Assembly: GCA_934532985.1 (NCBI GenBank)
Contig: CAKTAV010000001.1
Coordinates: forward strand, 230,182-294,181
DNA: 64,000 bases
Source: an uncultured Butyricicoccus sp.
GTDB lineage: Bacteria; Bacillota; Clostridia; Oscillospirales; Butyricicoccaceae
Direction: 5' to 3'
Shown: in pieces, positions 3,907 through 57,496 of the stretch
Layout: the number at the start of each line of letters is the position of its first letter
Position numbering within the stretch: position 1 is the stretch's first letter
Made by a program: the position numbers and the translations under genes
Notes under the pieces: generated by a model
Told to the model about the DNA's origin: nothing
The model's input: only the letters and a program-made list of their open reading frames with translations
The model's database searches: none

Positions 3907-3911
3907 TTCTA

Positions 3912-4012
3912 CTCTATTTGCTTTTTTACTTTGTCGTAATTGCTGGAGAGAGAGTAGTCTATTTTCTTTTGCTGCCAAAAGAAAATAGACAAAAGGAAAA
4001 CCAGCAGGAAAC
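3912..4012 (+). repeat. Intergenic repeat, A-module copy 2 (extended)
   Basis: CTCTATTTGCTT...TATTTTCTTTTG-CTGC-CAAAAGAAAATA...GGAAAACCAGCAGGAA; aligns with 13268..13368 and 986..1045. Confidence 0.85.
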
Positions 4013-4093
4013 GGCTGCGTTCCCTGTACCCTTCCGAGCTGCCTGTAGGGAAAACTGGTCTATTATCTTGCCACCGCATGAATGTTACTATAT

Positions 4094-4203
4094 CGCGACG
4101 CAACCCAGCGGAGCGGTTGTGGCGCGAAGGAGCAAGACCACGGAGCGGCTGAGCCGTGTTGACGCTTCAACGCGGCGATGTAGCGGAGTGTGTCGCAGCG
4201 ATG
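4094..4203 (+). repeat. Two-hairpin core element, copy 1
   Basis: H1 CGCGACGCAACC-cagcggagc-GGTTGTGGCGCG. Linker AAGGAGCAAG. H2 GCCGTGTTGA-cgc-TCAACGCGGC. Tail GATGTAGCGGAGTGTGTCGCAGCGATGC. Confidence 0.85.
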
Positions 4204-4280
4204 CAGAGGGTATTTACATTGCGCATAGTGGGTAGTTAGCCATCTATCCTCAGAGTAAATCTTGTTTCTTTCCCTCAACA

Positions 4281-4455
4281 ATAACAGCCTGCGATAGCGG
4301 AAAAACTTCGAATCCAGTTTTTCCGCGTGTAGAGCGTTAAGGAAGGTCTTTAGGAAACGTAGTTTCCTAAATCAGCTTCTTTCCCCCCACTTCTTGTCTG
4401 ATGACAAGAAATGGGGCCGCCGCGGAGCGGGATAAACAAGTCTGCTTCGGCGAAC
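4281..4455 (+). repeat. Intergenic repeat, D-module copy 1 (three consecutive hairpins)
   Basis: About 90% identical by hand alignment to 7299..7470. Hairpins: GCGGAAAAACT/AGTTTTTCCGC, TTTAGGAAAC/GTTTCCTAAA, CCCCAC-TTCTTGTC/GACAAGAA-TGGGG. Confidence 0.9.
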
Positions 4456-7040: not shown

Positions 7041-7137
7041 TCGCGTCAACATATCAAAATAATAAGAATCACACAGCGCCGCTTTCTCTTCGGGGAGGGC
7101 GGCGTTCGCTTCGCCTGTCGCTGCGGCGCACTTTGCG

Positions 7138-7273
7138 GTCGCATCGGCGAACTCCACTATCTCCCTGTGCCAAAGTCTTGGCACAGCTCGACCGTTTCAT
7201 TGCCTCGCTCCTCAAATTCCAAACGCTTCGCTGGTTTGGAATTTGAAAACGGCGAGAGTTACTCTGAGAACAG
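7138..7273 (-). repeat. Two-hairpin core element, copy 2 (inverted orientation)
   Basis: On the minus strand: CTCAGAGTAA..., H1 CAAATTCCAAAC-cagcgaagc-GTTTGGAATTTG, linker AGGAGCGAG, H2 CTGTGCCAA-gac-TTGGCACAG, tail ...GTGGAGTTCGCCGATGCGAC. Confidence 0.85.
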
Positions 7274-7298
7274 CTCTTTCACTATTATATCTCAGCCA

Positions 7299-7470
7299 TA
7301 ATAGCCTCCGATAGCGGAAAAACTTCGAATCCAGTTTTTCCGCGTGTAGAGTGCTAAGGAAGGTCTTTAGGAAACGTCGTTTCCTGAATCAGTTTCTTTC
7401 CCCCACTTTTTGTCTGATGACAAGAAATGGGGCCTCCGCGGAGCGGGACGAACAAATCTGCTTCGGTGAA
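7299..7470 (+). repeat. Intergenic repeat, D-module copy 2
   Basis: Aligns with 4281..4455. The substitutions inside stems give G-U pairs. Confidence 0.9.
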
Positions 7471-7599
7471 TCGGCTATCTATCATTTTTTTAATTCGGCT
7501 GCGTCGCAGCGACAGCGATAGATGACAAAACACTTTGCTTGTGTTATAATAATCAATTATAATACATACCCCCTGAATTGATTTATGGAGGACTATCAT

Positions 7600-10977: not shown

Positions 10978-11075
10978 TATAAACAGTGTCTTTTTGCAGA
11001 AATGCGATTGTATTTTGGGGGATTTGAGTGTAGGCGGAGCGATTATACGCTTACAGTTTGATCTGTGCTTGACGT

Positions 11076-11138
11076 CAGCGGACAACCCCTCTGCCACGGC
11101 AAGCCGTGGCATCTCCCCTTGCACAGGGGCGATATTGG
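11076..11138 (+). repeat. Intergenic repeat, F-module copy 1
   Basis: CAGCGGACAACCCCT-CTGCCACGGC-aa-GCCGTGGCAT-CTCCCCTTGCACAGGGGCGATATTGG; the second copy is at 19072... Confidence 0.85.
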
Positions 11139-11156
11139 AGAGAACGATTTACCGGT

Positions 11157-11294
11157 CTGTTCTTAGAGCAAATCTCTCGTTTTTCAAATTCCAAACCAGT
11201 GAAACGTTTGAAATTTGAGGAGCAAGGCAATGGAACGGTCTCGCCGTGTTGATGCTTCAACGCGGCGAGTGAGTGGAATTCGCCGAAGCGACGC
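11157..11294 (+). repeat. Two-hairpin core element, copy 3
   Basis: H1 CAAATTCCAAAC-cagtgaaac-GTTTGAAATTTG. Linker AGGAGCAAG. H2 CGCCGTGTTGA-tgc-TCAACGCGGCG. Tail GTGGAATTCGCCGAAGCGAC. Confidence 0.85.
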
Positions 11295-11377
11295 GATAGC
11301 GATAGTTGCGAAACCCTCCGCTATTTGGTATGATAAGAGGGGTTCGTTACACACAATGACCTTTGGGAGGAATAACA

Positions 11378-13150
11378 ATGAGAGTATATCATTTTGGCTC
11401 CGGCGGGGGAAATCCGTTTGAGGAGATTTTTCGCGGAATGGGCGGACAGCAGCAAAGCAGCGATCCGAACCAGAGCCAGAAGCATAATCCGCCGCCGCAT
11501 CGTGCGCGTCCGAAAACAAGTAAAAAGGGAAAAATCGCCCGTGTGATTGTGTTCTTGATTGCGCTGGCTGTGGGATATTATCTCATTCTGCCGCCGATGA
11601 ATATTCAGTCGACGGAGAGCTGGAGCTTTGTGGCGATATATCTGGCGCTGGCATGGTTTCTGGCGTCTACCGTGTCGAATGGAGAGACCAATAACGTTTA
11701 TGGAACGGATGGAAAGCCGATTCAGCCGCCAAAGAAGAAATTCGGCCTGCGCCGAATCATTGGCATGATATTTGGTGTGGGTATTGTTGTATATGTGCTG
11801 TGCACGGTGCTGTCCAGCCCACTGTTTCAGGCGAAGCACTATGCATCCATCATTCAGGAATCCATGACGACAAAAGAAATTGAGGAGTATACCCCGACGA
11901 TTGACAATGTGCCGCTGCTGGACCGCGACAGTGCCGAGCGTTTGGCACAGCGTGCGCTGGGCAATTTGGTCGATGAAGTGTCGCAGTTTGTGCTGGCAGA
12001 CAGCAACCAGATCACGGTAAAGGGTGCGCCAGTGCGCGTGCAGCCGCTGGGATATGATGGTGCGATTAAGTGGTTCCTCAACCGTGATGTCGGTATTCCT
12101 GCGTATATTACGGTGGATATGAAGAGCCAGAACACCAAAATTGTGCGTCTGGAACAAGGCATTCACTATTCGCCGAGTGCGTATCTGAATGACCGTCTGG
12201 AACGGCATCTGCGGTTTTCCTATCCGACGGCGATGTTCGGCGACTATAAGTTTGAATTGGATGAGGATGGCAATCCGTATTGGGTTGTTCCGGTGCTGCG
12301 CCATCGCATTATGCTGCTGGCGGGTACGGATGTCAAGGGTGTTGTCACCTGTAATCCGGTAACCGGAGAGACAGCGTATTATCCACTGGGACAGATTCCG
12401 GATTGGATTGACAATGTGTATAGCGCGGATTTGATTATCCAGCAGTATAACTGGTATGGACGCTATCATAATGGCTTTATCAATTCGCTGATCGGCCAGA
12501 AGGGCTGTGTCAAGACGACAGAAGGATATAACTATATCCCGAAGGGCAATGATGTATACTGCTACACGGGCGTCACCAGTGTAGTCAGTGATGAAAGCAA
12601 CATTGGCTTTATCTTCTCGGATTTGCGCACGCGCGAGACGGAATATTATGAAATTGCCGGTGCTGAGGAGTTCTCTGCGATGAGCAGTGCCGAAGGCTTG
12701 GTACAAAACCTGAAATATCAGGCGACGTTCCCGCTCCTGCTGAATATTCACGATCAGCCGACGTATACCGTTGCACTCAAGGATGACGCCGGATTGGTTA
12801 AAATGTACGGCATGGTCAATATGTCGCAGTATCAGGACGTTGTGACCGGCAAGACCATCAAGGACTGTCTTGCCAACTATGAGCAGCTACTGGTGGACGA
12901 CGGCATTATCAAGCCGGAGGAGCAGGAGGCCGCAGCAGCACAGGAAATCGAGGGCAAGATCATCGATCTTCGCTCGGCAGTGCGCAACGGCACGACATAC
13001 TATTACCTGCGGCTGGATAACGGCGAGAAATACTATTCTCTGAGCGCGTCGGACGACGAGACGGCGGTATTGCTCAATGAGGGCGACACGGTGCAGCTGG
13101 TCGTCAAGGACGGTAAGGGAGAAATTTTGGCAGCAACGCTGAAGGAGTAA
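11378..13150 (+). CDS. Membrane-anchored protein of unknown function (3 TM plus an extracytoplasmic domain of about 430 aa)
   Basis: GGGAGG lies 8 nt before ATG 11378. Gly/Pro/Gln-rich N-terminus followed by hydrophobic segments. I do not recognise a family. Confidence 0.6.
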   Translation: MRVYHFGSGGGNPFEEIFRGMGGQQQSSDPNQSQKHNPPPHRARPKTSKKGKIARVIVFLIALAVGYYLILPPMNIQSTESWSFVAIYLALAWFLASTVSNGETNNVYGTDGKPIQPPKKKFGLRRIIGMIFGVGIVVYVLCTVLSSPLFQAKHYASIIQESMTTKEIEEYTPTIDNVPLLDRDSAERLAQRALGNLVDEVSQFVLADSNQITVKGAPVRVQPLGYDGAIKWFLNRDVGIPAYITVDMKSQNTKIVRLEQGIHYSPSAYLNDRLERHLRFSYPTAMFGDYKFELDEDGNPYWVVPVLRHRIMLLAGTDVKGVVTCNPVTGETAYYPLGQIPDWIDNVYSADLIIQQYNWYGRYHNGFINSLIGQKGCVKTTEGYNYIPKGNDVYCYTGVTSVVSDESNIGFIFSDLRTRETEYYEIAGAEEFSAMSSAEGLVQNLKYQATFPLLLNIHDQPTYTVALKDDAGLVKMYGMVNMSQYQDVVTGKTIKDCLANYEQLLVDDGIIKPEEQEAAAAQEIEGKIIDLRSAVRNGTTYYYLRLDNGEKYYSLSASDDETAVLLNEGDTVQLVVKDGKGEILAATLKE

Positions 13151-13221
13151 AAAAAATGGCATCAAAAAATGGCTGCTGTACAAGCAATGCTTGTACAGCA
13201 GCCGTTTTTGATGCCATTTTT
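13151..13221. terminator. Long bidirectional terminator hairpin between convergent genes
   Basis: Nested perfect inverted repeat AAAAATGGCATCAAAAA..GGCTGCTGTACAAGC-aat-GCTTGTACAGCAGCC..TTTTTGATGCCATTTTT. Confidence 0.85.
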
Positions 13222-13267
13222 CAATGAGGTATTCCAGTGATTTGGGATAGACAGTATTATTTTTCAG

Positions 13268-13402
13268 CTCTATTTGCTTGTTCGATTTACTGTAGTTGTT
13301 GGCAAGAAAAGTCCATTTTCTTTTGCTGCCAAAAGCAAGTGTACAAAAAGAAAACCAGTCAGGAGCCACGGAACGGAATGAACAAGTCTGCTTCGGCGAA
13401 CC
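13268..13402 (+). repeat. Intergenic repeat, A-module copy 3 plus the tail of the D-module
   Basis: CTCTATTTGCTTG...ATTTTCTTTTGCTGCCAAAAGCAAG...GAAAACCAGTCAGGAGC, then AACAAGTCTGCTTCGGCGAAC, which matches the end of 4281..4455. Confidence 0.8.
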
Positions 13403-13421
13403 GGCGAGATCGATGCGACGA

Positions 13422-14753
13422 TTATAGATATCCATATTTCTTCCGCTTTGCCCACAGCAGCGCCGCCGCAACAATAACCGCGAAGATATCCGCCACGACA
13501 ACCGCACCCCAGATTCCGTTGATGCCAAACAGCAGCGGCAGCAGCATAACCATGATAACCTCAAACACCAGTGTGCGCAGGAACGAGATCACCGCAGAGA
13601 GCAGGCCGTTATTCAGTGCCGTAAAGAAGTTGGACGCATAAATCGCAAAGCCGACAAACAGATAGGACAGCGAATAAATCTGAATGGCGTGCTCGGTAAG
13701 CGCCATGAGGTTCGCATCATAGCTGACGAAAATTCCGGCCAATACACCGGAAAGCACATGCGCCAGAACCGCCATCGAGATGCCGGCGACGCTGATAATC
13801 AGCACACTCTTTCTCAGCAGATTTTTCAGTTCGTCCGGATGCATAGCACCATAGTGAAAACCGACAATCGGTGCGGTACCAATGGAATAGCCAAGGAAGG
13901 ACGAGACAAAGACGAACGACAGATACATGATAATGCCGTAGGCGATAACGCCATCCGCACCAATCATTCGCATCAGCTGGAAATTATATAGGATATTGAC
14001 CAGCGACATCGAAATACTGGAAAGCATTTCCGATGACCCGTTGGTGCATGCCTTGAGAATCGGCTGAAATTGCAGTTTCGTCCTGCGCAGCTTGAGATTC
14101 GAACGCTTGCTGAACGCAAAATAAAGCAGCGGAATCAAGCCTCCTGCAAATTCACTGAGCGCAGTGGCAGCCGCTGCACCGAACAGCCCGAGCTTACATA
14201 CATAGATCAGGACAAAGTCGCCGACCATGTTGCAGACACCGGCAGAGAGCGAGACAGCAAGTCCCATTTTCGGCTTACCCTCAACCACCATAAAGCTCTG
14301 AAAGGCGTTTTGCAGCATGAAGGCCGTTAGACTCACCAGCAGGACGCGGCCATACAGCACACAGCCCTCCAAAATTTCGCCCTCTGCGCCCAACAAACGG
14401 GCAATCGGGCGGATAAAAATAAAACCGAGTACAGCAATCGCAATGCCCATGCCGATGGTAAAGAAAATCAGCATGGAAAAATAGGAATTGGCGCGATCCG
14501 GCTTTCCCTGTCCCAACGTCTTAGAAACCAGCGCACTGCCACCCGTGCCGATCATAAAGCCCAGAGAACCAAAAATCATCAGCACCGGATAGATCAGGTT
14601 CAAGGCAGCAAACGCCGTGCTGCCAACCAGATTGGATACAAACAGCCCATCTACAACGCCGTAGATGGATGTGACAATCATCATACAGATTGACGGCAGC
14701 GCAAACCGCAGCAGCTTGGAAAAAGTAAAATGATCGGATAATTGAATGTGCAT
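13422..14753 (-). CDS. MATE-family efflux transporter
   Basis: 12-TM profile. N-terminus F.KLLRFALPSICMMIVTSIYGVVDGLFVSNLVG is typical of MATE. AAGGGGGA RBS before ATG 14753. The upstream in-frame extension to 14882 was judged non-coding. Confidence 0.85.
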   Translation of the reverse strand: MHIQLSDHFTFSKLLRFALPSICMMIVTSIYGVVDGLFVSNLVGSTAFAALNLIYPVLMIFGSLGFMIGTGGSALVSKTLGQGKPDRANSYFSMLIFFTIGMGIAIAVLGFIFIRPIARLLGAEGEILEGCVLYGRVLLVSLTAFMLQNAFQSFMVVEGKPKMGLAVSLSAGVCNMVGDFVLIYVCKLGLFGAAAATALSEFAGGLIPLLYFAFSKRSNLKLRRTKLQFQPILKACTNGSSEMLSSISMSLVNILYNFQLMRMIGADGVIAYGIIMYLSFVFVSSFLGYSIGTAPIVGFHYGAMHPDELKNLLRKSVLIISVAGISMAVLAHVLSGVLAGIFVSYDANLMALTEHAIQIYSLSYLFVGFAIYASNFFTALNNGLLSAVISFLRTLVFEVIMVMLLPLLFGINGIWGAVVVADIFAVIVAAALLWAKRKKYGYL

Positions 14754-14782
14754 ACGAGAATATTCCCCCTTTGTTTTATTTG

Positions 14783-14826
14783 ATAAAAAAGAGAGCCCGA
14801 TTATTTCGCAATAATCGAGCCCACTC
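14783..14826 (-). promoter_or_regulatory. Terminator-like hairpin plus U-run inside the MATE 5' leader (candidate attenuator or riboswitch expression platform)
   Basis: Minus strand: GGGCTCGATTATT-gcga-AATAATCGGGCTC (13 bp, 2 G-U pairs) followed by TCTTTTTTA, about 30 nt before the MATE RBS. Confidence 0.5.
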
Positions 14827-14896
14827 GACATCTTCTCTAACGGGATGATTGGGATCATCCGTCCTCCGATGAACGAATTCAATTGTTCTATTCGTA

Positions 14897-14925
14897 AGTA
14901 TATCGGGTTATATGCAAAAAGTCAA
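14897..14925 (-). promoter_or_regulatory. Candidate sigma-A promoter for the MATE leader
   Basis: Minus strand TTGACT-17 nt-TATACT, 5 nt after the upstream stop codon. Confidence 0.5.
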
Positions 14926-14929
14926 CCTA

Positions 14930-15355
14930 CTACTTGTTGATTAAAATCAAGCCGACTGCACAGATCACAACGCCCAAAACCTGCCGCAGAGAAATCGATT
15001 CCTTGTACAGCAGCAGACCGACAACCAACAGAACACTGGCAAGCAAAATGTTTGCAATAACCGAAGCAACGCTAATTTTCCAGCCAATCCGATAGGCATT
15101 GATATAGCCAAACTCCAGCGCGACAATCGACAGTCCGAGTACAATGGAGGACCAATTGGTCTTGGCAATCTCGGCAATCAAATTTTTTTGCGATGCCGTG
15201 GCAAAAAACAGCACAGCGGCGACAATAGCGGCAACGCCATAGGTGACAAACAGCGACGCAAAGGAATTCACTGAGGACGGCGTGGATTTGGAGCTGATGT
15301 GATACAGACAGTTTGCCGCCACGACAATGAAAATCGGCCACAGGTTATTGAGCAT
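14930..15355 (-). CDS. Small EamA/DMT-superfamily membrane protein (single EamA domain)
   Basis: 141 aa with about 5 TM. GGAGGG lies 7 nt before ATG 15355. Confidence 0.65.
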   Translation of the reverse strand: MLNNLWPIFIVVAANCLYHISSKSTPSSVNSFASLFVTYGVAAIVAAVLFFATASQKNLIAEIAKTNWSSIVLGLSIVALEFGYINAYRIGWKISVASVIANILLASVLLVVGLLLYKESISLRQVLGVVICAVGLILINK

Positions 15356-15470
15356 AGGGTTTCCCTCCAAAGCAAAAAAATACGCACACAAAGTGACCTT
15401 TGTGTGCGGCAGGTGTCCATCCGACTGTTGTTATTATACGCATTTTCAGAAAAAAATGCAATGGATTTGA

Positions 15471-15504
15471 TAAAAAATCAGGGCTGACATTGCAGTCAGC
15501 CCTG
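15471..15504 (-). terminator. Intrinsic terminator after the cytidylate-kinase-like gene
   Basis: CAGGGCTGAC/GTCAGCCCTG stem followed by a T-run on the minus strand. Confidence 0.8.
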
Positions 15505-15514
15505 AGATAGATTT

Positions 15515-16156
15515 TTATTCCTCATCGCCCGGAATCTTCGTGGTTTCCGTGCCCAGCGCTTGCACCGTCTCGATATACTCGATGATGGCGTCAACGCACT
15601 TCTCTACCGGAAGCCGTCCGGTATTCAGGCAGAGGTCATAGTTCTGTGCCTCACCCCAGCGTCTGCCGGAGTAATAGTTGTAGAACGATGCACGCTGCTT
15701 ATCCATGCGCTCAACGGCATCCTTCGTAACCTTTTTCACCGCCGGATCGGTGGCGGCGTGCTCCATGCGCTTTTCAATCGGTGCGGAGATAAAGACATTG
15801 TATACCTCCGGCCAATCGCGCAGAACATGGCTGGCAGCGCGGCCAATGATGACACAGGAGCCATCCGACGCGAGCTTGCGAATCACGTCGCGCTGTACGA
15901 CATACAGCTGATCCGAAAGGGACAGTCCGTTCATGCCCACGGAGCCAAACGTCGCCAGCGAATACAGCAGACTGCTAGTCGAACGCTTGTCGAGCGAGTC
16001 AAAGAGCTTTTCACTAAATCCGCTCTCCTTGGAAGCCATAGCGATAATGCTGCGGTCATAAAACGGAATACCGAGACGGTTGGCGAGTTCTACGCCGATC
16101 TCATGTCCTTGGCTACCGTACTGACGGCTGATGGTAATAATCGTATTTGGCAGCAT
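15515..16156 (-). CDS. Cytidylate kinase-like family protein
   Basis: ITISRQYGSQGHEIGVELANRLGIPFYDR is the signature of the CMP-kinase-like family. GGAGGG RBS before ATG 16156. Confidence 0.75.
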   Translation of the reverse strand: MLPNTIITISRQYGSQGHEIGVELANRLGIPFYDRSIIAMASKESGFSEKLFDSLDKRSTSSLLYSLATFGSVGMNGLSLSDQLYVVQRDVIRKLASDGSCVIIGRAASHVLRDWPEVYNVFISAPIEKRMEHAATDPAVKKVTKDAVERMDKQRASFYNYYSGRRWGEAQNYDLCLNTGRLPVEKCVDAIIEYIETVQALGTETTKIPGDEE

Positions 16157-16302
16157 AAACGATCCCTCCTCTTGGATGCTCATACGGAGCTTTTATCGTT
16201 ACAAAAAGTATACCGCAAAATGCGTCAAAAGTCAAGCAAAACAGTGGTTTTGAATGGGAAGAGAGGAAAATATTACAAGGCACAGCGAAGAGAATAATCG
16301 GA

Positions 16303-16337
16303 CAAAAAGAAGGGGCCGCGGCACATGCCGCAGCCCC
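16303..16337 (-). terminator. Intrinsic terminator after the pyrophosphatase gene
   Basis: GGGGCTGCGGCATGTGCCGCGGCCCC followed by TTCTTTTT on the minus strand. Confidence 0.85.
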
Positions 16338-16363
16338 AAAAATCAATGGATATCCGAGTGAAA

Positions 16364-18460
16364 TTACAGCAGACCGATCAGATTGAATGCAACCACGAGT
16401 CCAGAGAATACGATGGAAACGGTGGAGCACAGCTTGATCAGAATGTTCAGGGACGGACCGGAGGTGTCCTTGAACGGGTCGCCTACGGTGTCGCCGACAA
16501 CCGCTGCCTTGTGGCAGTCGCTGCCCTTGCCGCCGTGATGACCGGCCTCAATATACTTTTTGGCGTTGTCCCAAGCGCCGCCGGCGTTGGACATAAAGAC
16601 TGCCATCGCGAAACCGCAAACGGATACACCGCCCAGCAGGCCAACAACACCGCACGGTCCGAGAATCAGACCGGTGACGATCGGAACAATGATTGCCAGC
16701 AGTGCCGGAGCAACCATTTCGTGCAGCGCACCCTTCGTGCACAGTGCAACACAGCTTGCGTAATCCGGATCTGCCTTGTAATCCATAATACCGGCAATTT
16801 CCTTGAACTGACGGCGAACTTCTACAACGATGGACTGTGCCGCCGTCTGAACCGCGCTCATCGTGAAGGCAGAGAATACCATCGTCAGCATTGCGCCGAT
16901 GAACAGACCAACCAAAATGGTCGGGTTAGACAGGCTCAAATCCATCGTGCCCTTGCCGGCCGCAACCAGCTTATCATTTGCAATGTTGATGTAGGATACC
17001 AGCAGTGCCAGCGCGGTCAGCGAAGCGGAGCCGATTGCAAAGCCCTTGCCGGTTGCTGCGGTCGTATTGCCCAGGGAGTCCAGCGCGTCAGTGCGCTCAC
17101 GAACCTCTTCCGGCAGACCGGACATTTCAGCGATACCGCCGGCATTGTCCGCTACCGGGCCATAGGCGTCGGTTGCCAGCGTGATGCCGAGGGTGGACAG
17201 CATACCTACGGCAGAGATACCAATGCCGTACAGACCCATGGCGTAATCCGCATGACCGCCCGCTGCATAGAAGGAGATGATAACCGCAACAGCAACGATC
17301 AGAATTGGCGCCATCGTGGACTTCATGCCGAGAGAGATACCACCGATGATGATGGTAGCCGAGCCGGTCTCGGAAGCGTCAGCCAGCTTCTGGGTCGGCT
17401 TGTAGGTGTCCGAGGTATAGTATTCGGTGAAGTAGCCGATTGCAGAACCGCCTACCAGACCGCAGAGAATCGCGATAAATACGCCCAGCTTGTTGGTGTC
17501 CAGAATCAGGAAGCACAGAACGGCAGCACAGACAGCAGAGAGAACAGCTGCGGTGTAAGTGCCGGTGCGCAGGCTGGTCAGCAGAGAGGCCTGCGTTGCG
17601 TTTTCCTTGGTCTTGACCAAGAAGGACGAGAAAATGGAGCACACGATGCCACATACTGCCAGAAGTACCGGAAGAACCATACCCTTGAAGCCGTAGCCGG
17701 CGGCAGCGCCCAGTGCGAATGTAGCAAGGATGGATCCGACATAGGACTCGTACAGGTCAGCGCCCATACCGGCAACGTCACCAACGTTGTCGCCTACGTT
17801 GTCGGCGATGGTGGCCGGGTTACGCGGGTCATCCTCCGGGATGCCTGCCTCAACCTTACCTACCAGGTCAGCGCCTACGTCAGCAGCCTTGGTATAAATA
17901 CCACCGCCAACACGCGCAAACAGAGCCATAAAGGAAGCGCCCATGCCGTTCATGACCATAATGTTGCCCAGAACGGACGGATCGGTCTTGCCAAAGACAA
18001 AGTACAGCAGGGAGAACCAGATCGTGATGTCGAGCAGACCCAGACCAACGACGGTGAAGCCCATAACGGAACCGGAAGAGAAAGCAACGCGCAGACCCTT
18101 GTTCAGGCTCTCCGACGCTGCATGTGCGGTACGGGCGTTGGCATTGGTTGCAATCTTCATACCCATCAGACCCGCAATCATCGACCAGATGCCGCCGGTC
18201 AGGAACGCGAACGGGGTAAAGATGCTCAGCATACCGCCAAAGGCGAGTATGAGAAGGATGATGAACACAACGACGAATACCTTTGCCACCGTCGTGTACT
18301 GATGCTTCAGATACGCGTTAGCACCTTCACGGATGGAGGCCGCGATCTTCTGCATTTTGTCTGTTCCCTCGGAATACTGCATAACCTTTCCGCGCTGATA
18401 CAGTGCGAAAATCAGGGCGATGGCAGCGCCGACGAAACCGACTAACATTAAGTTTGCCAA
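16364..18460 (-). CDS. hppA: Membrane-bound ion-translocating pyrophosphatase
   Basis: About 700 aa and polytopic. Motifs [40 protein letters not shown]. The start is probably TTG 18460 (AAGGAG 8 nt upstream) or ATG 18448. Confidence 0.9.
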
Positions 18461-18487
18461 GTTTCTCACTCCTTGTATTTGAGGTCG

Positions 18488-18568
18488 GATTGTTTGCACA
18501 AACGGAGCACCATTTGTACGTTTCTATAAATATAGCATAAACTCGGCAAATTATTTGTGCAAACAATC
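18488..18568. promoter_or_regulatory. Pair of 15-nt inverted sites flanking the putative hppA promoter
   Basis: GATTGTTTGCACAAA at 18488..18502 and its exact reverse complement TTTGTGCAAACAATC at 18554..18568. Each contains GTTTG-nn-CAAAC. Confidence 0.45.
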
Positions 18569-18785
18569 GGATGTTATTAGCCGTAATTATTTAGTATTAC
18601 CGACAGTGGACCAATTGCTGCAAAAAAGTCTCAAAAAATCAAGCGAAAAATTAACGGCAAAATGGTTTCGAAATACAGCATTTAACAAGGAAATATGCAA
18701 GATTTCATAATAAAAGATTGTGTGTATCTTCGGAACATAAAAATAGACAAACCGAGGAAAATCAGTTTGCCAATTCTCTGTCACG

Positions 18786-18925
18786 GTCGCTGCGACACAC
18801 TGCGCTACATCGCCACGCCGAGGCATCGGCATGGCTCAACCGCTCCGTGGTCTTGCTCCTTCGCGTCACAACCGCTACGCTGGGTTGCGTCGCGATATAT
18901 GCTAAGATTTCCTCTGAGAATAGAC
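18786..18925 (-). repeat. Two-hairpin core element, copy 4
   Basis: Minus strand: H1 CGCGACGCAACC-cagcgtagc-GGTTGTGACGCG, linker AAGGAGCAAG, H2 GCCATGCCGA-tgc-TCGGCGTGGC, tail GATGTAGCGCAGTGTGTCGCAGCGAC. Confidence 0.85.
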
Positions 18926-18984
18926 GGGTAAAATTTTCGGTTTTACTCACTATGTGCACGTTAAATACCTTCTGCAAATCTTTT

Positions 18985-19040
18985 GAGTGAGCGAAGCGAA
19001 AGTGGGATGTCAGTTGTTTCCAACAACTGACTGAGGGATT
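18985..19040 (+). repeat. Intergenic repeat, G-module tail
   Basis: GAGCGAAGCGAAAGTGGGATG, hairpin TCAGTTGTT-tccaa-CAACTGA, then CTGAGGGATT; parallels 22745.. and 56035... Confidence 0.75.
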
Positions 19041-19071
19041 GTACGCCTACGTCAAGATTTATGCTAACTTT

Positions 19072-19135
19072 CAGCGGACAACCCCTCTGTCACGGCTGCG
19101 CCGTGACATCTCCCCTTGCACAAGGGCAATATTAG
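19072..19135 (+). repeat. Intergenic repeat, F-module copy 2
   Basis: CAGCGGACAACCCCT-CTGTCACGGC-tgc-GCCGTGACAT-CTCCCCTTGCACAAGGGCAATATTAG. The stem change relative to copy 1 is compensated. Confidence 0.85.
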
Positions 19136-19244
19136 TGCGTGCCATTTACTCTGAAAATAGACAGTTATTAAACTTCCAACAGCTACATCAAAGCCACCAA
19201 ACAAATAGAGCGAAAAAAAACAATAGACAGTACCCCATCCCCGG

Positions 19245-19287
19245 CAAATCAACACAAAAGCAAGACCTCCGCCGCAGAGGAGGTCTC
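19245..19287 (-). terminator. Intrinsic terminator after the histidine kinase gene
   Basis: AGACCTCC/GGAGGTCT stem followed by TTGCTTTTGTGTT on the minus strand. Confidence 0.7.
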
Positions 19288-19302
19288 GCCCATCGTATCC
19301 AC

Positions 19303-21591
19303 TTACTTCTTCTCCTGCACGCTTCCACCGTTTCCCGTCCACAGCGGCATAAATACCTCCGCCTTGAACAGGTCGCCGTCCACCGTAATGTTGAATGAAC
19401 CGTGCATCAGCTCGGCCAGACTGCGTGCAATCGACAGTCCAAGTCCGCTTCCCTCGGTATACCGCGCGCGGTCGCCGCGGGTGAAACGTTCCATCAGCTC
19501 TTCTGCCGAGATATTCAGCTCCTGCGCAGAAATGTTCTTCATCGTCAGCACGCACCAGCTGCCCTGTTCCTTCAGCTCGACATACACGCGGCTGTTCGGC
19601 AGTGCATAGCGCACACAATTGGTCAGCAGGTTATCCATAATGCGCCACAGCTTTCGTCCGTCCGCGATAACCGCCGTGCGTCCTTCGGTGCGCAGGCGAA
19701 TCTCCAGTCCCGCCGCATGCAGCTTTTCTTCCATCTCGCCACAGGTCTGCTGGAACAGCGCTTCCCAGTCCACACGGGTCAGGTCGGTTTTCATCGCACC
19801 GCTGGACGCCTTGGACGCCTCCAGCAGATCGTTAATCAGCACGCTCAGCCGTTTGGTCTTTTGATCCACCGTCTGCAAATACTCCGCCATGCGCGGGTCA
19901 TTCGGCTCTAGCTTTTTCATCAGATCCACATAGGTGATAATACCGGTCAGCGGGGTTTTCAGGTCGTGCGATACGTTGGAAATCAGCTCGGATTTCAGCC
20001 GTTCCGACTGTACCGCCGTCTCCACGGCGTTGTGCAGGCCATCCGAAATACTGTTCAGATCGTCCGCCAGCTGTTTTAGCTCCTGTCCGCCCTTGACGTC
20101 GATGTGCGTGTCGGTCTCTCCGGCGCGGATGCGCTTGGCGCCGTCACACACCGCCTTCAGCCGCTCCGCAGAGCGAATGCCCGCATACAGCAGTCCGGCA
20201 ATCACAAACGGAACCGTAACCAGCGGCATGCACACCAGCGGAACCAGAATCGCCGCCGAAATCACCTTCATGAACATTGGGCCGCGCTTCCAGCGGGCGA
20301 GCACATACTTCACGCCGCGCAGGCAGATAAAGCCATCCCAGAACGAGTGTGTCTTGATGCGGCGCACCTGCGGCATCAGGCAAAGCAGACCGATCGCCGC
20401 GCCTGCCATCGCACACAGTATCGGCATAACGCGCAGGGGCGACGTCGGTGTTAGCGTGCTTTGCATCAAATCCATCCATTGCAGGCCAAACGAAGCGCAC
20501 AGCAGGAATCCACCCAAGCCGACCATCCAGTATACTTCGCTCCAGATGCGATCCTCCGGACGCAGCCGCGCGATGTCATCCTTGCTTGTCTTGCCAATAC
20601 CGCAGATCAGCACAATGATGCACAGCAGCACACCCAGCAGGCAGAGGCCAAATGCCATCGCATAACCCTCCAGCGGGCGAAGCAGCTCGTTATAATCCGT
20701 CCCCATGTACTCGTTAAACGTCTTATCCCGCACACCGACAACAATCACATCGCTCGAATGGACGTCGCTGATTCCTACATCCGACTCATCCATCAGATTC
20801 GCGGCATCGCTGGTATCCGCTGTCTTCATGGCATCCTCTGCCAACCGCTCGTCCCATTGGTAATCAAATGTACCACTCTTCGGGTCGAGCGCCAGCACGA
20901 CAGCACACTTGCCAATCTTCTGCTGCGCCGCCTTTGCCTGCGCCCGCTTGCTCTTCATCGTATCTACTGTAACATTGGTTTCCAGCGTCTCTCCGCCGTC
21001 GCGCTTCGTATAGACACAGTAAATATAGCGGTCTCCCAAGCCCTGTAGGTACTGCACCTCATCATTCCAGCTGTTGATTCCTTCGTTTACCAAGCTCTTT
21101 CGCGCTTCTTCATAGCAGCCCGGATTGGCCTCCAGCCAGTTCATGAAGCTCTGCACATCTCCACTGACTTCGCTCATATCCTCTTCACTGCCCAAATAGG
21201 CGGACAGTGCTCGCTCGATACTGCTCTTGGTCTTTTTGTTCAGCTTGCTGTTTGATTGGCTGGATGTTTCCCCCGCCAAATAATAGTCCTCATACAGCCG
21301 TTCCACAACCTGCGAGTCGGTAATGGACTTGCCGTTCATCACATTCTGCTCGCCGCCAAACGAATACACCATATCTGTCATGAACATCGCCGCGTTGTAC
21401 TCCTCCGAGAGTATCGTATTGATCCACGCATTGTGGTCTGCAAGTATATCCCATGTCAGGTTGTTTTTTCCGCTGTACTCCGACGCCGCCTCTATCGTTC
21501 CAATCGCCGTGCCGGACAGCACGACTGCCAGAACAAATGCACCGACTTTTGTCCATGTGTTCCGCACAAATTGCTTCCATCTCGTTTTCAT
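19303..21591 (-). CDS. Sensor histidine kinase with a large N-terminal extracytoplasmic region and a multi-TM block
   Basis: H-box SHDLKTPLT and a C-terminal HATPase region (GSGLGLSIA). Start taken at MKTRWKQ; the ORF opens at 21660. Confidence 0.85.
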   Translation of the reverse strand: MKTRWKQFVRNTWTKVGAFVLAVVLSGTAIGTIEAASEYSGKNNLTWDILADHNAWINTILSEEYNAAMFMTDMVYSFGGEQNVMNGKSITDSQVVERLYEDYYLAGETSSQSNSKLNKKTKSSIERALSAYLGSEEDMSEVSGDVQSFMNWLEANPGCYEEARKSLVNEGINSWNDEVQYLQGLGDRYIYCVYTKRDGGETLETNVTVDTMKSKRAQAKAAQQKIGKCAVVLALDPKSGTFDYQWDERLAEDAMKTADTSDAANLMDESDVGISDVHSSDVIVVGVRDKTFNEYMGTDYNELLRPLEGYAMAFGLCLLGVLLCIIVLICGIGKTSKDDIARLRPEDRIWSEVYWMVGLGGFLLCASFGLQWMDLMQSTLTPTSPLRVMPILCAMAGAAIGLLCLMPQVRRIKTHSFWDGFICLRGVKYVLARWKRGPMFMKVISAAILVPLVCMPLVTVPFVIAGLLYAGIRSAERLKAVCDGAKRIRAGETDTHIDVKGGQELKQLADDLNSISDGLHNAVETAVQSERLKSELISNVSHDLKTPLTGIITYVDLMKKLEPNDPRMAEYLQTVDQKTKRLSVLINDLLEASKASSGAMKTDLTRVDWEALFQQTCGEMEEKLHAAGLEIRLRTEGRTAVIADGRKLWRIMDNLLTNCVRYALPNSRVYVELKEQGSWCVLTMKNISAQELNISAEELMERFTRGDRARYTEGSGLGLSIARSLAELMHGSFNITVDGDLFKAEVFMPLWTGNGGSVQEKK

Positions 21592-22615: not shown

Positions 22616-22685
22616 TGTATTGGGATATGTGGTACGTTCCTATTTGACTATGGAGAGGAAATAAGCTAATATTGTAAATTCTAAT

Positions 22686-22802
22686 CCTCTCAGAGTAAAT
22701 CTTACTGCTTTAGCTCCCTTATGCAAATGGGCCGCGCCATGCCAGTGGCATGCGAGCGAAGCGAAAGCGGGATGAATTTACACAGCAAATTCTGTGAGGA
22801 TC
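22686..22802 (+). repeat. Intergenic repeat, CTCAGAGTAAATC motif plus G-module
   Basis: CCTCTCAGAGTAAATCTTACTGC...CCATGCCAGTGGCATGCGAGCGAAGCGAAAGCGGGATG, a hairpin, then AGGATC. Confidence 0.8.
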
Positions 22803-53762: not shown

Positions 53763-54917
53763 ATGTCAAACTCTCATTTTCAAATAGTACGATCAACTAT
53801 TGCACTCTTTCTGACCATTGCCCTTTCCTGCATTTCCATTTTTCTGTTTTCCTCTGCCATGATATACAAGCACTTCGACGCACGGAGTCTGGAAAAGGAC
53901 AACAACACGGTCTATCTCTCGATTCAGCACGAATCCGATCCGACCAAGCTCCCCAACACGCCGGAAACGCTGCATGACTTTCTTACCCTATACAACGCTC
54001 TGTCGCAATCTGATTCCTATACGTATTATGAGTTATACGCTCAGCCTATCGTGCCTACCTCCGGTTCATTTTTCGATTTTTACACCGAAGAATGGAGCGA
54101 CACCCCGCAGGAAGTGTATGCCGTACAGCTCAGCGCCAATGTGCAAAAGGACTTTGCGCTTTCTGTCTCCCGCGGGCGGCTGCTCAAAGCGTCGGACTTT
54201 ACGCTGCGCAGCAAGCAGTCCATCCCCGTTCTTCTCGGCGCTTCCTACGCTTCTCGGTATTCCCTCGGCGATACATGTCGTGCCGACTACCTGTATCACA
54301 CCTATCCGTTTGTTGTCGTCGGATTTTTGGACAAGGACAGTCAGATTGCCACCTCCAACAACACCATGCCGCTGGATCAAGCCGTCGTCATGCCGAGCTT
54401 TCTCTATGACGGCACGCCCAAAACGAAGTCCGCTTACACATCGCTGAAAATCCACTACGCCAACAAGGTCAGCGGCAGCCTCCGCATGAAACCGGAGCAA
54501 TTGGATACCGTCTCTGCGCAGGTCACATCGCTTCTGCAAGACACGCCGGTCGGCACGTTCTCATGGTCCAGCAGTATCTGGGGCGATCAGCCCATTCTGT
54601 GGGGCATGAACCTTCGCACGTTGTCCGTCATCTCTGCCCTCATCGGCCTTCTGGCAATCCTCGCCTCACTGATTCTGCTGGCACGCATCGCGCGAACTGC
54701 TTCGCGAAAGCTACTCTCCTTTATCGCGGTTTTGGTGATTCATATCATAGCATTCGCCGCGTTCATCGGCGTGTATCAGGCTGTTTTGGCAGACCGGCTG
54801 ACAATTGACCTGTTTTCTCTCATACCATATCCACTGCTGTTCTGCGGTGTGGACTGTCTGATTTTTCTCCTTCTGCTTTGTAGGAAGAAAACACACGGTT
54901 CACGCAATTCATCCTGA
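53763..54917 (+). CDS. Membrane protein with FtsX/MacB-like topology (TM, extracytoplasmic domain of about 250 aa, then 3 TM); no partner ATPase
   Basis: AAGGAG lies 8 nt before ATG 53763. The hydrophobicity pattern supports the topology. GC is lower than the flanks. Confidence 0.6.
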   Translation: MSNSHFQIVRSTIALFLTIALSCISIFLFSSAMIYKHFDARSLEKDNNTVYLSIQHESDPTKLPNTPETLHDFLTLYNALSQSDSYTYYELYAQPIVPTSGSFFDFYTEEWSDTPQEVYAVQLSANVQKDFALSVSRGRLLKASDFTLRSKQSIPVLLGASYASRYSLGDTCRADYLYHTYPFVVVGFLDKDSQIATSNNTMPLDQAVVMPSFLYDGTPKTKSAYTSLKIHYANKVSGSLRMKPEQLDTVSAQVTSLLQDTPVGTFSWSSSIWGDQPILWGMNLRTLSVISALIGLLAILASLILLARIARTASRKLLSFIAVLVIHIIAFAAFIGVYQAVLADRLTIDLFSLIPYPLLFCGVDCLIFLLLLCRKKTHGSRNSS

Positions 54918-54974: not shown

Positions 54975-55190
54975 GCGGAACGAAGTATCCGGGAGAGCAC
55001 CGCAGCGCAAACCAGGGGCTGCGCGTCGCCGAAGGGGTTATACTCTCAGGCAAAAGGATCGGATATGGACTGCACTCTGGAAAGCCGGCAGCGACCGGCG
55101 CCGACGAAGCAATCGGCCTGCACGTCCGAGTATCTTTCAGGCAAACAGACAGAGCACCACGCAAAAAGCGGAGGGGCTCTGTTTTTTTGT
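54975..55190 (+). promoter_or_regulatory. Tandem glycine riboswitch with terminator (ON-switch architecture)
   Basis: Aptamer 1: GGGAGAG...CGCCGAAGGGG...CTCAGGCAAAAGGATCGG. Aptamer 2: CTCTGGAAAG...CGCCGACGAAGCAA...TTTCAGGCAAACAGAC. Then CAGAGC...GCTCTG plus T7. Confidence 0.85.
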
Positions 55191-55207: not shown

Positions 55208-55834
55208 ATGGACGTATTCAGCGCAATTTTTGAAATGATCGGGGTACTGGCGTTTGCGGTTTCCGGCGCTCTGGTCGGCATTCGCCACAAGATGGATTTA
55301 TTCGGCGTGATCTCTCTGGGCGTGGTCACCGCTCTGGGCGGCGGCGTCATTCGCGATGTCGTACTCGGCATCGTCCCGCCCGCCGCATTCCAAAATCCGA
55401 CACAGGTGCTCGCCGCTATCGCCGTCTCGGTTTTGGTTTTTCTGCCCTTTTCCCGCCGCCGTCTCGCGCACAGCACCGCGCAGTTTGACACGCTGCTGCT
55501 CGTCGCGGACTCCATCGGTCTGGGCATTTTCACCGTGCACGGCCTACGCGCCGCGGTCAACGCGGGCTTCTCGGACAATCTGTTTCTGCTCATCTTCGTC
55601 GCTCTGATTACCGGTGTCGGCGGCGGTGTCCTGCGCGATCTGCTCGCGGGAGAGCGCCCATATATTTTTGTCAAGCACATCTACGCCTGCGCCTCCATCG
55701 TCGGGGCTCTGCTATGCGCATTCGCCGCGCCGCGGTGTGGTATCCAGCTGGCCATGGCGTTCGGCTGCGCCGCGGTAATCCTGCTACGCCTTAGCTCGGC
55801 GCGCTACCGCTGGAATCTGCCGCGGGCGGACTAG
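55208..55834 (+). CDS. UPF0126/TRIC-family membrane protein (putative glycine transporter family)
   Basis: Two repeats of the G.LGGG..RD motif (TALGGGVIRDV and TGVGGGVLRDL). AGGAGG RBS before ATG 55208. Confidence 0.85.
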   Translation: MDVFSAIFEMIGVLAFAVSGALVGIRHKMDLFGVISLGVVTALGGGVIRDVVLGIVPPAAFQNPTQVLAAIAVSVLVFLPFSRRRLAHSTAQFDTLLLVADSIGLGIFTVHGLRAAVNAGFSDNLFLLIFVALITGVGGGVLRDLLAGERPYIFVKHIYACASIVGALLCAFAAPRCGIQLAMAFGCAAVILLRLSSARYRWNLPRAD

Positions 55835-55970
55835 TCGCATCGGCGAATTCCGCTACCTCCCTGTGCCAAAGTCTTGCCACAGCTCGACCGCTCCAGTGCC
55901 TCGCTCCTCAAATTCCAAACGTTTCACTGGTTTGGAATTTGAAAAACGGTAAGATTTACTCTGAGAACAG
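55835..55970 (-). repeat. Two-hairpin core element, copy 5 (starts at the base after the upstream stop codon)
   Basis: About 90% identical to 7138..7273. H1 CAAATTCCAAAC-cagtgaaac-GTTTGGAATTTG. H2 CTGTGGCAA-gac-TTGGCACAG. Confidence 0.85.
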
Positions 55971-55974
55971 ACAG

Positions 55975-56088
55975 ATAAATGGCACGCACCAAAGGCGTCC
56001 CTTGATGCAACAGGCTGCACCATGCCAGTGGCATGTGAGCGCAGCAAAAGCAGGACTGTCAATTGCGTAGCAATTGACTAAAGGGATT
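55975..56088 (+). repeat. Intergenic repeat, G-module
   Basis: CCATGCCAGTGGCATGTGAGCGCAGCAAAAGCAGGACTG, hairpin TCAATTGC-gta-GCAATTGA, then CTAAAGGGATT. Confidence 0.8.
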
Positions 56089-57055: not shown

Positions 57056-57496
57056 ATGGATTTTATACTGATTATCCAGGATGACCGCGCCTTGGCAGAA
57101 GGGCTGTGCCGTGCGCTGACCTTTATCCTCGCCCTGATCGGCATTTTGAACTTCACCAACACGATCATTTCCTCGATGGATGCCCCCCGCCGCGAGCTGG
57201 CGGTGCTGCAAAGCATCGGCATGACTGGACAGCAGCTACGTCGTATGCTCAGCTGGGAGGATCTGCTGTATGCCATCATCACACTTGCGCTCACCGTCAC
57301 GGTCGGTTCGGCGGTCACCTATGGGCTGGTGCATCTGCTCTCGTCGGAGATGTTGTACTTCACCTGGCACTTTACCGTGTTTCCGCTCACGCTGTGTGCG
57401 CCGGTGCTGCTGGTTCTCTGCCTGCTCGTGCCAACGCTGTGCTACCGCAGTCTGCGCCGACACACTATTGTCGAGCGGCTGCGTGAGACGGAATGA
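57056..57496 (+). pseudogene. Fusion remnant: first 21 codons of a response regulator joined to the last ~125 codons of an FtsX-type ABC permease
   Basis: MDFILIIQDDRALAEGLCRAL (receiver-domain start) runs directly into ILALIGILNFTNTIISSMDAPRRELAVLQSIGMTGQQLRRML... (FtsX TM2 to TM4). Confidence 0.65.

Follow-up and report, generated by a model that had tools for sequence, protein, structure and literature searches.

A species-restricted family of structured intergenic repeats of about 120 bases from an uncultured bacterium of the human gut (Oscillospiraceae/Butyricicoccus group)

The DNA analysed here, which we refer to as the window, is a stretch of 64 kb that is identical to part of a 378-kb contig from a human-gut metagenome (ENA ERZ27287048, k141_802383). 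Its gene content is clostridial, with SpoVG, nearby germination genes and a membrane pyrophosphatase, and the nearest named homologues of its proteins come from Oscillospiraceae and Butyricicoccus MAGs. A search of the whole window against Rfam 15 at the gathering score returned only two riboswitches: a glycine riboswitch (55067–55162, forward strand) upstream of a glycine-transporter-family gene and a TPP riboswitch (61300–61407, reverse strand) upstream of thiamine genes. The spacers between the genes contain the element that is the subject of this report, an undescribed family of structured intergenic repeats with a core of approximately 120 bases.

A preliminary description had placed five copies of the element in the window. 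All five are present, and they align over approximately 125–140 nt. The copies are of two types, A and B. E1 (4083..4206, forward strand) is of A type, has a degenerate 5′ module upstream and lies between the genes for GtrA and a lipase. E2 (7134..7273, reverse strand; 5′ module 7255–7273) is of B type and is flanked by Mur ligase and ROK genes, to both of which it is antisense. E3 (11157..11296, forward strand; 5′ module 11157–11175), also of B type, occupies the spacer between the genes for TauE and a 590-residue protein. E4 (18782..18925, reverse strand; 5′ module 18905–18923) is of A type and separates a HisKA kinase gene from the H+-pyrophosphatase gene. E5 (55830..55970, reverse strand; 5′ module 55952–55970) is of B type and lies between the glycine-transporter-family gene and a hexapeptide transferase gene; its tail directly adjoins the TAG stop codon of the former, which ends at 55834. 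Thus, every copy in the 64-kb window is intergenic, both orientations occur and the relation to the flanking genes is not constant, with four of the five copies running in the same direction as the next downstream gene.

The linker pattern AGGAGCRAGRCNNNGRARCGG, with the stems left unconstrained, has exactly five matches in the 64 kb, which are the five copies, compared with an expectation of 0.08 from shuffled sequence. The preliminary description had called for a covariance model, and we built one (R1) from ten distinct copies. It scores the window copies at 126–137 bits (E about 1e-26) and matches 4083–4206 and 11174–11296 on the forward strand and 7134–7256, 18782–18905 and 55830–55952 on the reverse strand.

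On one strand, the core folds into a hairpin (H1) followed by a long irregular hairpin that runs from a helix P3 to a terminal hairpin H2, giving three helices. RNA folding of the individual window copies gave an identical architecture in four of the five, and in each of the five the sense RNA fold was better than the antisense fold by 4–12 kcal/mol. RNAalifold predicted 33 pairs from an alignment of ten distinct sequences (A4), 16 of them with double changes. In E1, all on the forward strand, H1 is formed by 4094–4105 and 4115–4126 around a loop at 4106–4114, the linker AGGAGCAAG occupies 4128–4136, P3 pairs 4136–4141 with 4188–4194, H2 is formed by 4153–4162 and 4167–4176 around a loop at 4163–4166, and the tail GCAGCGA has its last base at 4201.

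H1 consists of 12 bp, a CA bulge, a further 2 bp (a G–C pair and a covarying Y–R pair) and a GNA triloop. Its loop had been described as a loop of nine nucleotides; the G–C and Y–R pairs within it close the GNA triloop and the loop is therefore structured. The tip of H1 reads GCGNAGC in most copies (GCGGAGC, GCGTAGC or GCGAAGC) and often GTGAAAC in the B type. The linker, (A)AGGAGCRAG, is single-stranded in the predicted fold, and its AGGAGC segment resembles a Shine–Dalgarno sequence. The stretch of about 15 nt after the linker is no mere spacer, as it contains the 5′ strand of P3, a covarying helix that encloses H2. This strand reads GACCAC or GGCAAT, and its partner within the tail reads GTG(T)GTC or ATT(C)GCC; the helix has a constant one-nucleotide bulge and its strands are approximately 50 nt apart, so it is not a local palindrome. 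Inside P3 lies a 3 × 3 purine loop with GGA opposite GNA, and the purine-rich internal loops are conserved. A helix of 2 bp follows, in which G–C is replaced by A–U within the B subfamily. The region between this helix and H2 contains G·A, G·U and variable pairs and ends in tandem G·A/A·G pairs; E3 has Watson–Crick pairs in place of the tandem G·A pairs beside H2. H2 itself is a stem of 10 bp capped by a tetraloop (CGCT, TGCT, TGCC or GACT), not by the three-nucleotide loop first assigned to it. The core ends at GCGA(C), and this sharply conserved 3′ end adjoins variable flanking DNA.

The window copies contain two versions of the H1 stem and three of H2, as had been described. The two H1 versions were, however, said to be unrelated. 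They have five of the 12 positions in common, and the CGCGAC version carries a constant G·U pair and one constant mismatch; they are thus neither perfect stems nor wholly unrelated ones. The difference between them is best seen as a single swap of the whole hairpin rather than as seven stepwise events. Other strains add at least three further versions of H2. In all, no fewer than five or six versions of H2 are known, between which one to three compensated pairs differ, and one version is common to the A-type E1 and the B-type E3. Some of the changes are thus independent of the division into A and B types, and a further example is seen at columns 83/125 of alignment A5, where G–C becomes A–U within the B type.

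Covariation was assessed on 18 distinct copies from several strains, of which about 16 are nearly full length and which represent five chromosomal sites in one species. Two controls were used, one in which the 3′ partners were slid by 1–3 columns and one consisting of 500 column shuffles. Standard pairs fill 93.1% of the cells, compared with 28–46% in the slid alignments and 81.8% in the column shuffles, none of which (0 of 500) reached the observed value. Double-sided change is found at 17 of the 37 pairs (2–4 when slid; 14.0 in the column shuffles), and the covariation score is 0.40 (0.05–0.11 when slid; 0.21 in the column shuffles). The alignment contains 44 G·U cells but only eight A·C cells, with the G·U pairs at fixed positions; the fold therefore has a polarity. 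Mean pairwise identity is higher in the unpaired columns (0.78) than in the paired columns (0.72). The sequence of the stems is free to vary provided that pairing is kept.

The proposal that selection acts on the secondary structure of a single strand, either RNA or single-stranded DNA, rather than on sequence or coding capacity is supported by these pairing and covariation tests and by the lack of a conserved reading frame. A small protein gene was rejected: no frame is open in all of the copies. The sole frame with a Shine–Dalgarno sequence and an ATG occurs in the B type only, the A type having ACG at the position of the ATG, and the peptide that it encodes is rewritten with each change in H2.

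Template switching during replication can yield changes in hairpins that look compensatory in the absence of selection (PMC8794818), and the structure could in principle have a mechanical origin, with palindromes made or 'repaired' by intrastrand template switching in replication or by gene conversion. This process is documented to create and maintain hairpins of this type (PMC8794818), the difference between the H1 versions resembles a whole-hairpin swap, and the chimeric copies described below amount to an exchange of segments among copies. Template switching makes perfect palindromes, however, and here the G·U pairs at fixed positions and one mismatch persist. Furthermore, P3 covaries even though it is non-local and keeps its constant bulge, and the loops and linker are at least as well conserved as the stems, which is the opposite of neutral decay. 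On balance we consider it improbable that the structure arose without structural selection.

Whether the selected strand is RNA or single-stranded DNA is a closer question. When DNA energy parameters are used, the strand asymmetry of the B-type copies disappears and P3 is absent from the minimum-energy fold. This weakens the single-stranded DNA version and gives a slight lean to RNA. The GCGNAGC tip of H1 points the other way, as this motif is reported to be an unusually stable mini-hairpin of single-stranded DNA (PMC13037366). We regard the two as close to evenly balanced with RNA marginally ahead. An RNA form would suit a second alternative, in which the copies are RNA elements that serve the host: either a multicopy small RNA whose own promoter would lie within the 5′ module, or an element of UTRs that stabilizes, processes or insulates transcripts, with conserved loops that would bind a host RNA-binding protein. 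The G·U pairs at fixed positions and the fact that the RNA fold, and not the DNA fold, gives all three covarying helices are in keeping with this suggestion, as are the single-stranded linker with its Shine–Dalgarno-like AGGAGC, the presence of conserved sequence always 5′ of the structured part and the shared direction of four of the five window copies and their next downstream genes. We return to this alternative below, as the organization of the spacers and their variation between strains bear on it.

The conserved sequence in question is a partly palindromic 5′ module, CTGTCTRTTCTCAGAGTAAATCT, which stands at the start of each unit and is absent from the preliminary description. As CTGTTCTCAGAGTAAATCT it precedes four of the five window copies, and the bases immediately 5′ of it are variable. 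Scans against consensus sequences found neither a σ70-type promoter at the 5′ module nor an intrinsic terminator after the core tail, a result that counts against a host-serving RNA. The 5′ module also occurs without the core. At 4244..4262 (forward strand) it is followed by a 181-bp repeat (4274–4454) that is also present at 7291–7470; at 19142..19160 (reverse strand) it is followed by a hairpin-bearing cargo (19033–19149) related to 11037–11152; and at 22684..22702 (forward strand) it is followed by a cargo (22715–22772) related to 55998–56055, which lies beside E5. These other cargos have variable-stem hairpins of their own and can sit back to back across the module. An additional upstream module, GCAGARGGTATTTA..CATAGTGRGTA, precedes the 5′ module of A-type copies at 18926..18975 (reverse strand) and is also found at 4204–4243 (forward strand) and in the strain locus L122. 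With the 5′ module joined to various cargos, the spacers amount to mosaics in which the units are interchangeable.

In addition to the core, the window contains intergenic repeat modules of three or more other families with hairpins of their own, the stems of which vary by copy (for example GTCACGG..CCGTGAC, GCCACGG..CCGTGGC and CATGCC..GGCATG). These modules are located at 946–1039, 3907–4009 and 13263–13401, at 4274–4454 and 7291–7470, and at 11037–11152, 19033–19149, 22715–22772 and 55998–56055. They share with the core an AGGAGC..CACGGARCGG segment and a common 3′ piece, GTCTGCTTCGGCGAAC, and are linked with this 5′ module, too, in varying order and orientation. None of the small called open reading frames inside the repeat modules is repeated.

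The same chromosomal regions of other strains (95–99% identity) were fetched through look-ups of exact proteins, and their comparison indicates that the element turns over rapidly. Between the GtrA and lipase genes, the A-type copy of the window is on the forward strand and has the degenerate 5′ module, whereas the loci L113 and L161 have A-type copies on the reverse strand with different H2 versions. In the Mur ligase/ROK spacer, the reverse-strand B-type copy of the window is replaced in L113 by a forward-strand B-type copy with a new H2; in L161 this spacer contains an interrupted A-type copy, the 5′ and 3′ parts of which are separated by a B-type unit, and orphan tail fragments lie beyond it. 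The E5 site is occupied by the B type in the window and by the A type in L122, L125, L126 and L129, with an identical junction at the stop codon. At the E3 site, where the window has a B-type copy, several strains have an A/B chimera in which an internally deleted A-type piece is fused to the 3′ two-thirds of a B-type copy, the site-specific variant of the 5′ module being kept. Short contigs from other samples often terminate within the core, as expected for a multicopy repeat that breaks assemblies. No empty-site allele was recovered among the strain loci, in which the flanks consist of other repeat modules or gene ends, and much of the variation between strains could reflect homologous recombination or gene conversion among copies and not transposition. 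The core behaves as mobile mosaic DNA, unlike a conserved host RNA gene.

Related species were sampled through homologues of the pyrophosphatase, MMPL and AI-2E proteins. Among the loci that were fetched, R1 finds the core only in those of the window species. In approximately 45 kb from a sister species (about 85–91% nucleotide identity and 96% identity in the pyrophosphatase), a sample that includes orthologues of genes from the initial 20 kb of the window, where the elements are dense, there is no core, 5′ module or other repeat module. Relatives with a pyrophosphatase of 86–87% identity likewise have neither the core nor the 5′ module. Specific patterns combining the loop and the linker gave no match in JGI metagenomes or viral contigs, and a blastn search against plasmids and phages also gave none. 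The linker-only pattern proved too loose for a genome collection, in which it had 111 chance matches and no real copy. A search of the protein database with the translated element, which would detect spurious open reading frames over other copies, yielded no candidates, and extension of the sampled genome by a two-protein profile added no new copies. Within the sampled data, the family is restricted to one species.

As regards gene order, the window species differs from the sister species (locus L132), with breakpoints in the mosaic-repeat spacers of the window at 870–1066, 7041–7584, 10978–11377, 13151–13421 and 18461–19302. The mosaic repeats may mediate rearrangements or may accumulate at breakpoints.

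Turnover and distribution both weigh against RNA elements in the service of the host. The orientation of the copies with respect to the same neighbouring genes flips among strains, truncated, nested and chimeric copies are common, and the absence of the core from the sister-species sample would be unexpected for a useful regulator. When these observations are set beside the features of the fold that suit such elements, a host-serving RNA, although the chief rival to the explanation that we favour, appears to us to be possible but rather doubtful.

The element was also compared with known classes. At E ≤ 10, Rfam searches with two copies and their flanks gave nothing credible over the core, the best match being to the COG2908 RNA with 15 bits (threshold 58.7). 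The element lacks the terminal inverted repeats of a MITE: the 5′ end CTGTTCTCAGAGTAAATCT is not the reverse complement of the 3′ end ..GCAGCGAC or ..GATGCGAC. The strings GAGCCGU and CUGA..GA suggested a group II intron domain V or a hammerhead core around H2, and both were rejected because inspection by eye revealed no bulge, GNRA loop, AGC/GUU pairing or full CUGANGA..GAAA core; Rfam was likewise negative. An IS200/IS605 PATE or TnpB ωRNA was rejected because H1 and H2 are unrelated in sequence, the bases at the left junction vary and no tnpA or tnpB gene is present in the fetched DNA. More generally, neither the window nor the flanking DNA fetched from its species encodes a transposase, reverse transcriptase or recombinase, and an examination of nearby proteins without Pfam matches (590, 384 and 734 residues) as possible partners was uninformative.

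The core has some features of a guide RNA of a mobile element, of the TnpB/IscB ωRNA or IS110 bridge RNA type, in which a DNA target would be set by the variable stems or the flank: non-coding and structured, it combines a conserved scaffold with variable segments and has a sharply conserved 3′ end (GCGA/C) beside a variable flank. Neither the window nor the fetched flanks of its species contain a TnpB, IscB or IS110-type gene, however, and there is no Rfam match. The variable stems share only 5–11 nt with the 600-nt flank; the longest match, of 11 nt, falls in a truncated copy nearby, and the remainder correspond to chance expectation. In addition, the two arms of every variable stem change in concert, so that the arms pair with each other and not with a target. 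We therefore consider a guide RNA to be very unlikely.

In our view, the best explanation, to which we assign a probability of roughly 0.62, is that the core represents a multicopy, species-restricted family of non-autonomous mosaic intergenic repeats of the same kind as the BIME/REP, ERIC, BOX and neisserial mosaic elements. The repeat family is real, its polarity-specific three-helix fold is kept by compensatory change and it turns over rapidly between strains, with chimeras and nesting. It is short, non-coding, multicopy and intergenic, occurs in both orientations, forms hairpins and has strain-variable occupancy, and is BIME/BOX/ERIC-like in these respects, a term that denotes a broad kind and not a homology family. 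Given that the loops, bulges and AGGAGC linker are constant and only the stems vary, the single-stranded form, be it RNA or DNA, is probably recognized by a protein, which would contact the folded strand through these conserved unpaired elements. The most likely partner is the machinery responsible for propagation or recombination of the element, as suggested by its occurrence in either orientation, by the exchange, flips, nesting and truncation seen between strains and by its absence from the approximately 45 kb of the sister species; a host regulator is less likely. Such a mobilizing enzyme, which is entirely inferred, could be of the HUH/Y1 type acting on folded single-stranded DNA, as is the case for REP–RAYT and IS200/IS605, or could act on a structured RNA.

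The core might instead be a functional RNA class not previously known that is carried on a mobile repeat, for example a small self-cleaving or protein-recruiting RNA. The purine-rich loops (GGA/GNA, the tandem G·A pairs and the GCGNAGC tip) would then form an active or binding site, and the element would propagate via, or control, its own RNA or single-stranded DNA intermediate, outside the REP–RAYT, IS200/IS605, retron and group II intron systems. We give this a low probability.

Comparison with known systems supports filing the family as a new one within a known kind, that of interspersed, structured, mosaic intergenic repeats. ERIC and the pneumococcal BOX and RUP elements are approximately 100–150 nt in length, intergenic, inserted in either orientation, variable in occupancy between strains and without a transposase of their own; they fold into stable single-strand structures, BOX is modular and ERIC has variants with internal insertions. 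The core resembles them in size, intergenic position, orientation, variable occupancy, modularity, folding and lack of its own transposase. It has no sequence similarity to them, its distribution appears to be limited to one species and its fold is not one long palindrome but combines H1 with another hairpin, which a long-range helix closes and in which the purine-rich internal loops are conserved. In the neisserial mosaic elements, dRS3 repeats flank variable RS units in arrays that vary between strains. The present family is similar in that its interchangeable units are set apart by a short junction of partly palindromic sequence, the 5′ module, in strain-variable arrays; it differs in having no sequence relation, no known link to a phage integrase and units with multiple covarying helices. 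Intergenic mosaic elements of Neisseria are mentioned in PMC3184786.

A REP is a single palindrome of 20–40 nt with a conserved 5′ GTAG, and a REPIN consists of two inverted REPs; recognition of folded single-stranded DNA by a single-copy HUH/Y1 enzyme has been proposed for REP–RAYT (PMC3116915, PMC8266576). The present family shares with BIME and REP–REPIN elements the mosaic clusters of short hairpin modules in gene spacers, compensatory changes that keep the hairpin and a mostly vertical, lineage-specific inheritance (PMC3116915, PMC8266576). It is nevertheless not a REP or REPIN: the unit is about 120 nt long with three helices, the GTAG on the folding strand is located 3′ of H2 and not at the 5′ foot, no RAYT (Y1 transposase) gene is found in the approximately 90 kb fetched from the window species and the host belongs to the class Clostridia and is not a proteobacterium. 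The H1 tip GCGNAGC that most copies carry is an exact match to d(GCGNAGC), which is reported to form an unusually stable mini-hairpin of single-stranded DNA at priming sites of single-stranded DNA phages and plasmids (PMC13037366), although in the present family the motif merely caps a larger structure and B-type copies often have GTGAAAC instead.

The mobile and mosaic behaviour of the core, which the preliminary description had missed, changes the probable kind of function that its structure serves. The family is a clean case of stems that evolve freely around fixed loops in a polarity-specific fold. Its turnover at strain level can be read directly in metagenome assemblies and could serve as a strain marker; it also helps to explain assembly breaks in the window species and may mark hot spots of rearrangement. 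To our knowledge, structured interspersed repeats have received much attention in proteobacteria and streptococci, and scarcely any in uncultured Clostridia, which dominate the human gut. If the partner enzyme were found, mobilization systems that recognize single strands would be extended to a new lineage.

Several other features of the neighbourhood deserve mention. A gene for a 384-residue protein without a Pfam match lies, with small neighbouring open reading frames, at 53763–54917 (forward strand) and also at 12375–13529 in L166. Its presence varies between strains (L122/L125 compared with L123/L124), in the sister species it adjoins genes for an EcoO109I-like restriction enzyme and a DNA methylase, and it may belong to a mobile or defence island. 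The open reading frame at 61724–63928, which has no informative Pfam match, contains degenerate repeats with periods of 21, 42 and 63 nt (61959–63204, reverse strand) and probably encodes a repetitive surface protein. Near E5 there is an indel polymorphism: L122 and L125 carry genes for a response regulator, a histidine kinase, an ABC ATPase and two FtsX permeases (11964–19438), whereas the window counterpart (approximately 57056–57496) retains only an FtsX fragment of 146 residues. Finally, in L127 (1250–1470) the spacer after the E5-site copy is followed by apparent tRNA genes on the opposite strand and, beyond them, by a different neighbourhood with Rrf2, rubrerythrin and riboflavin genes, a rearrangement that has one end at the element.
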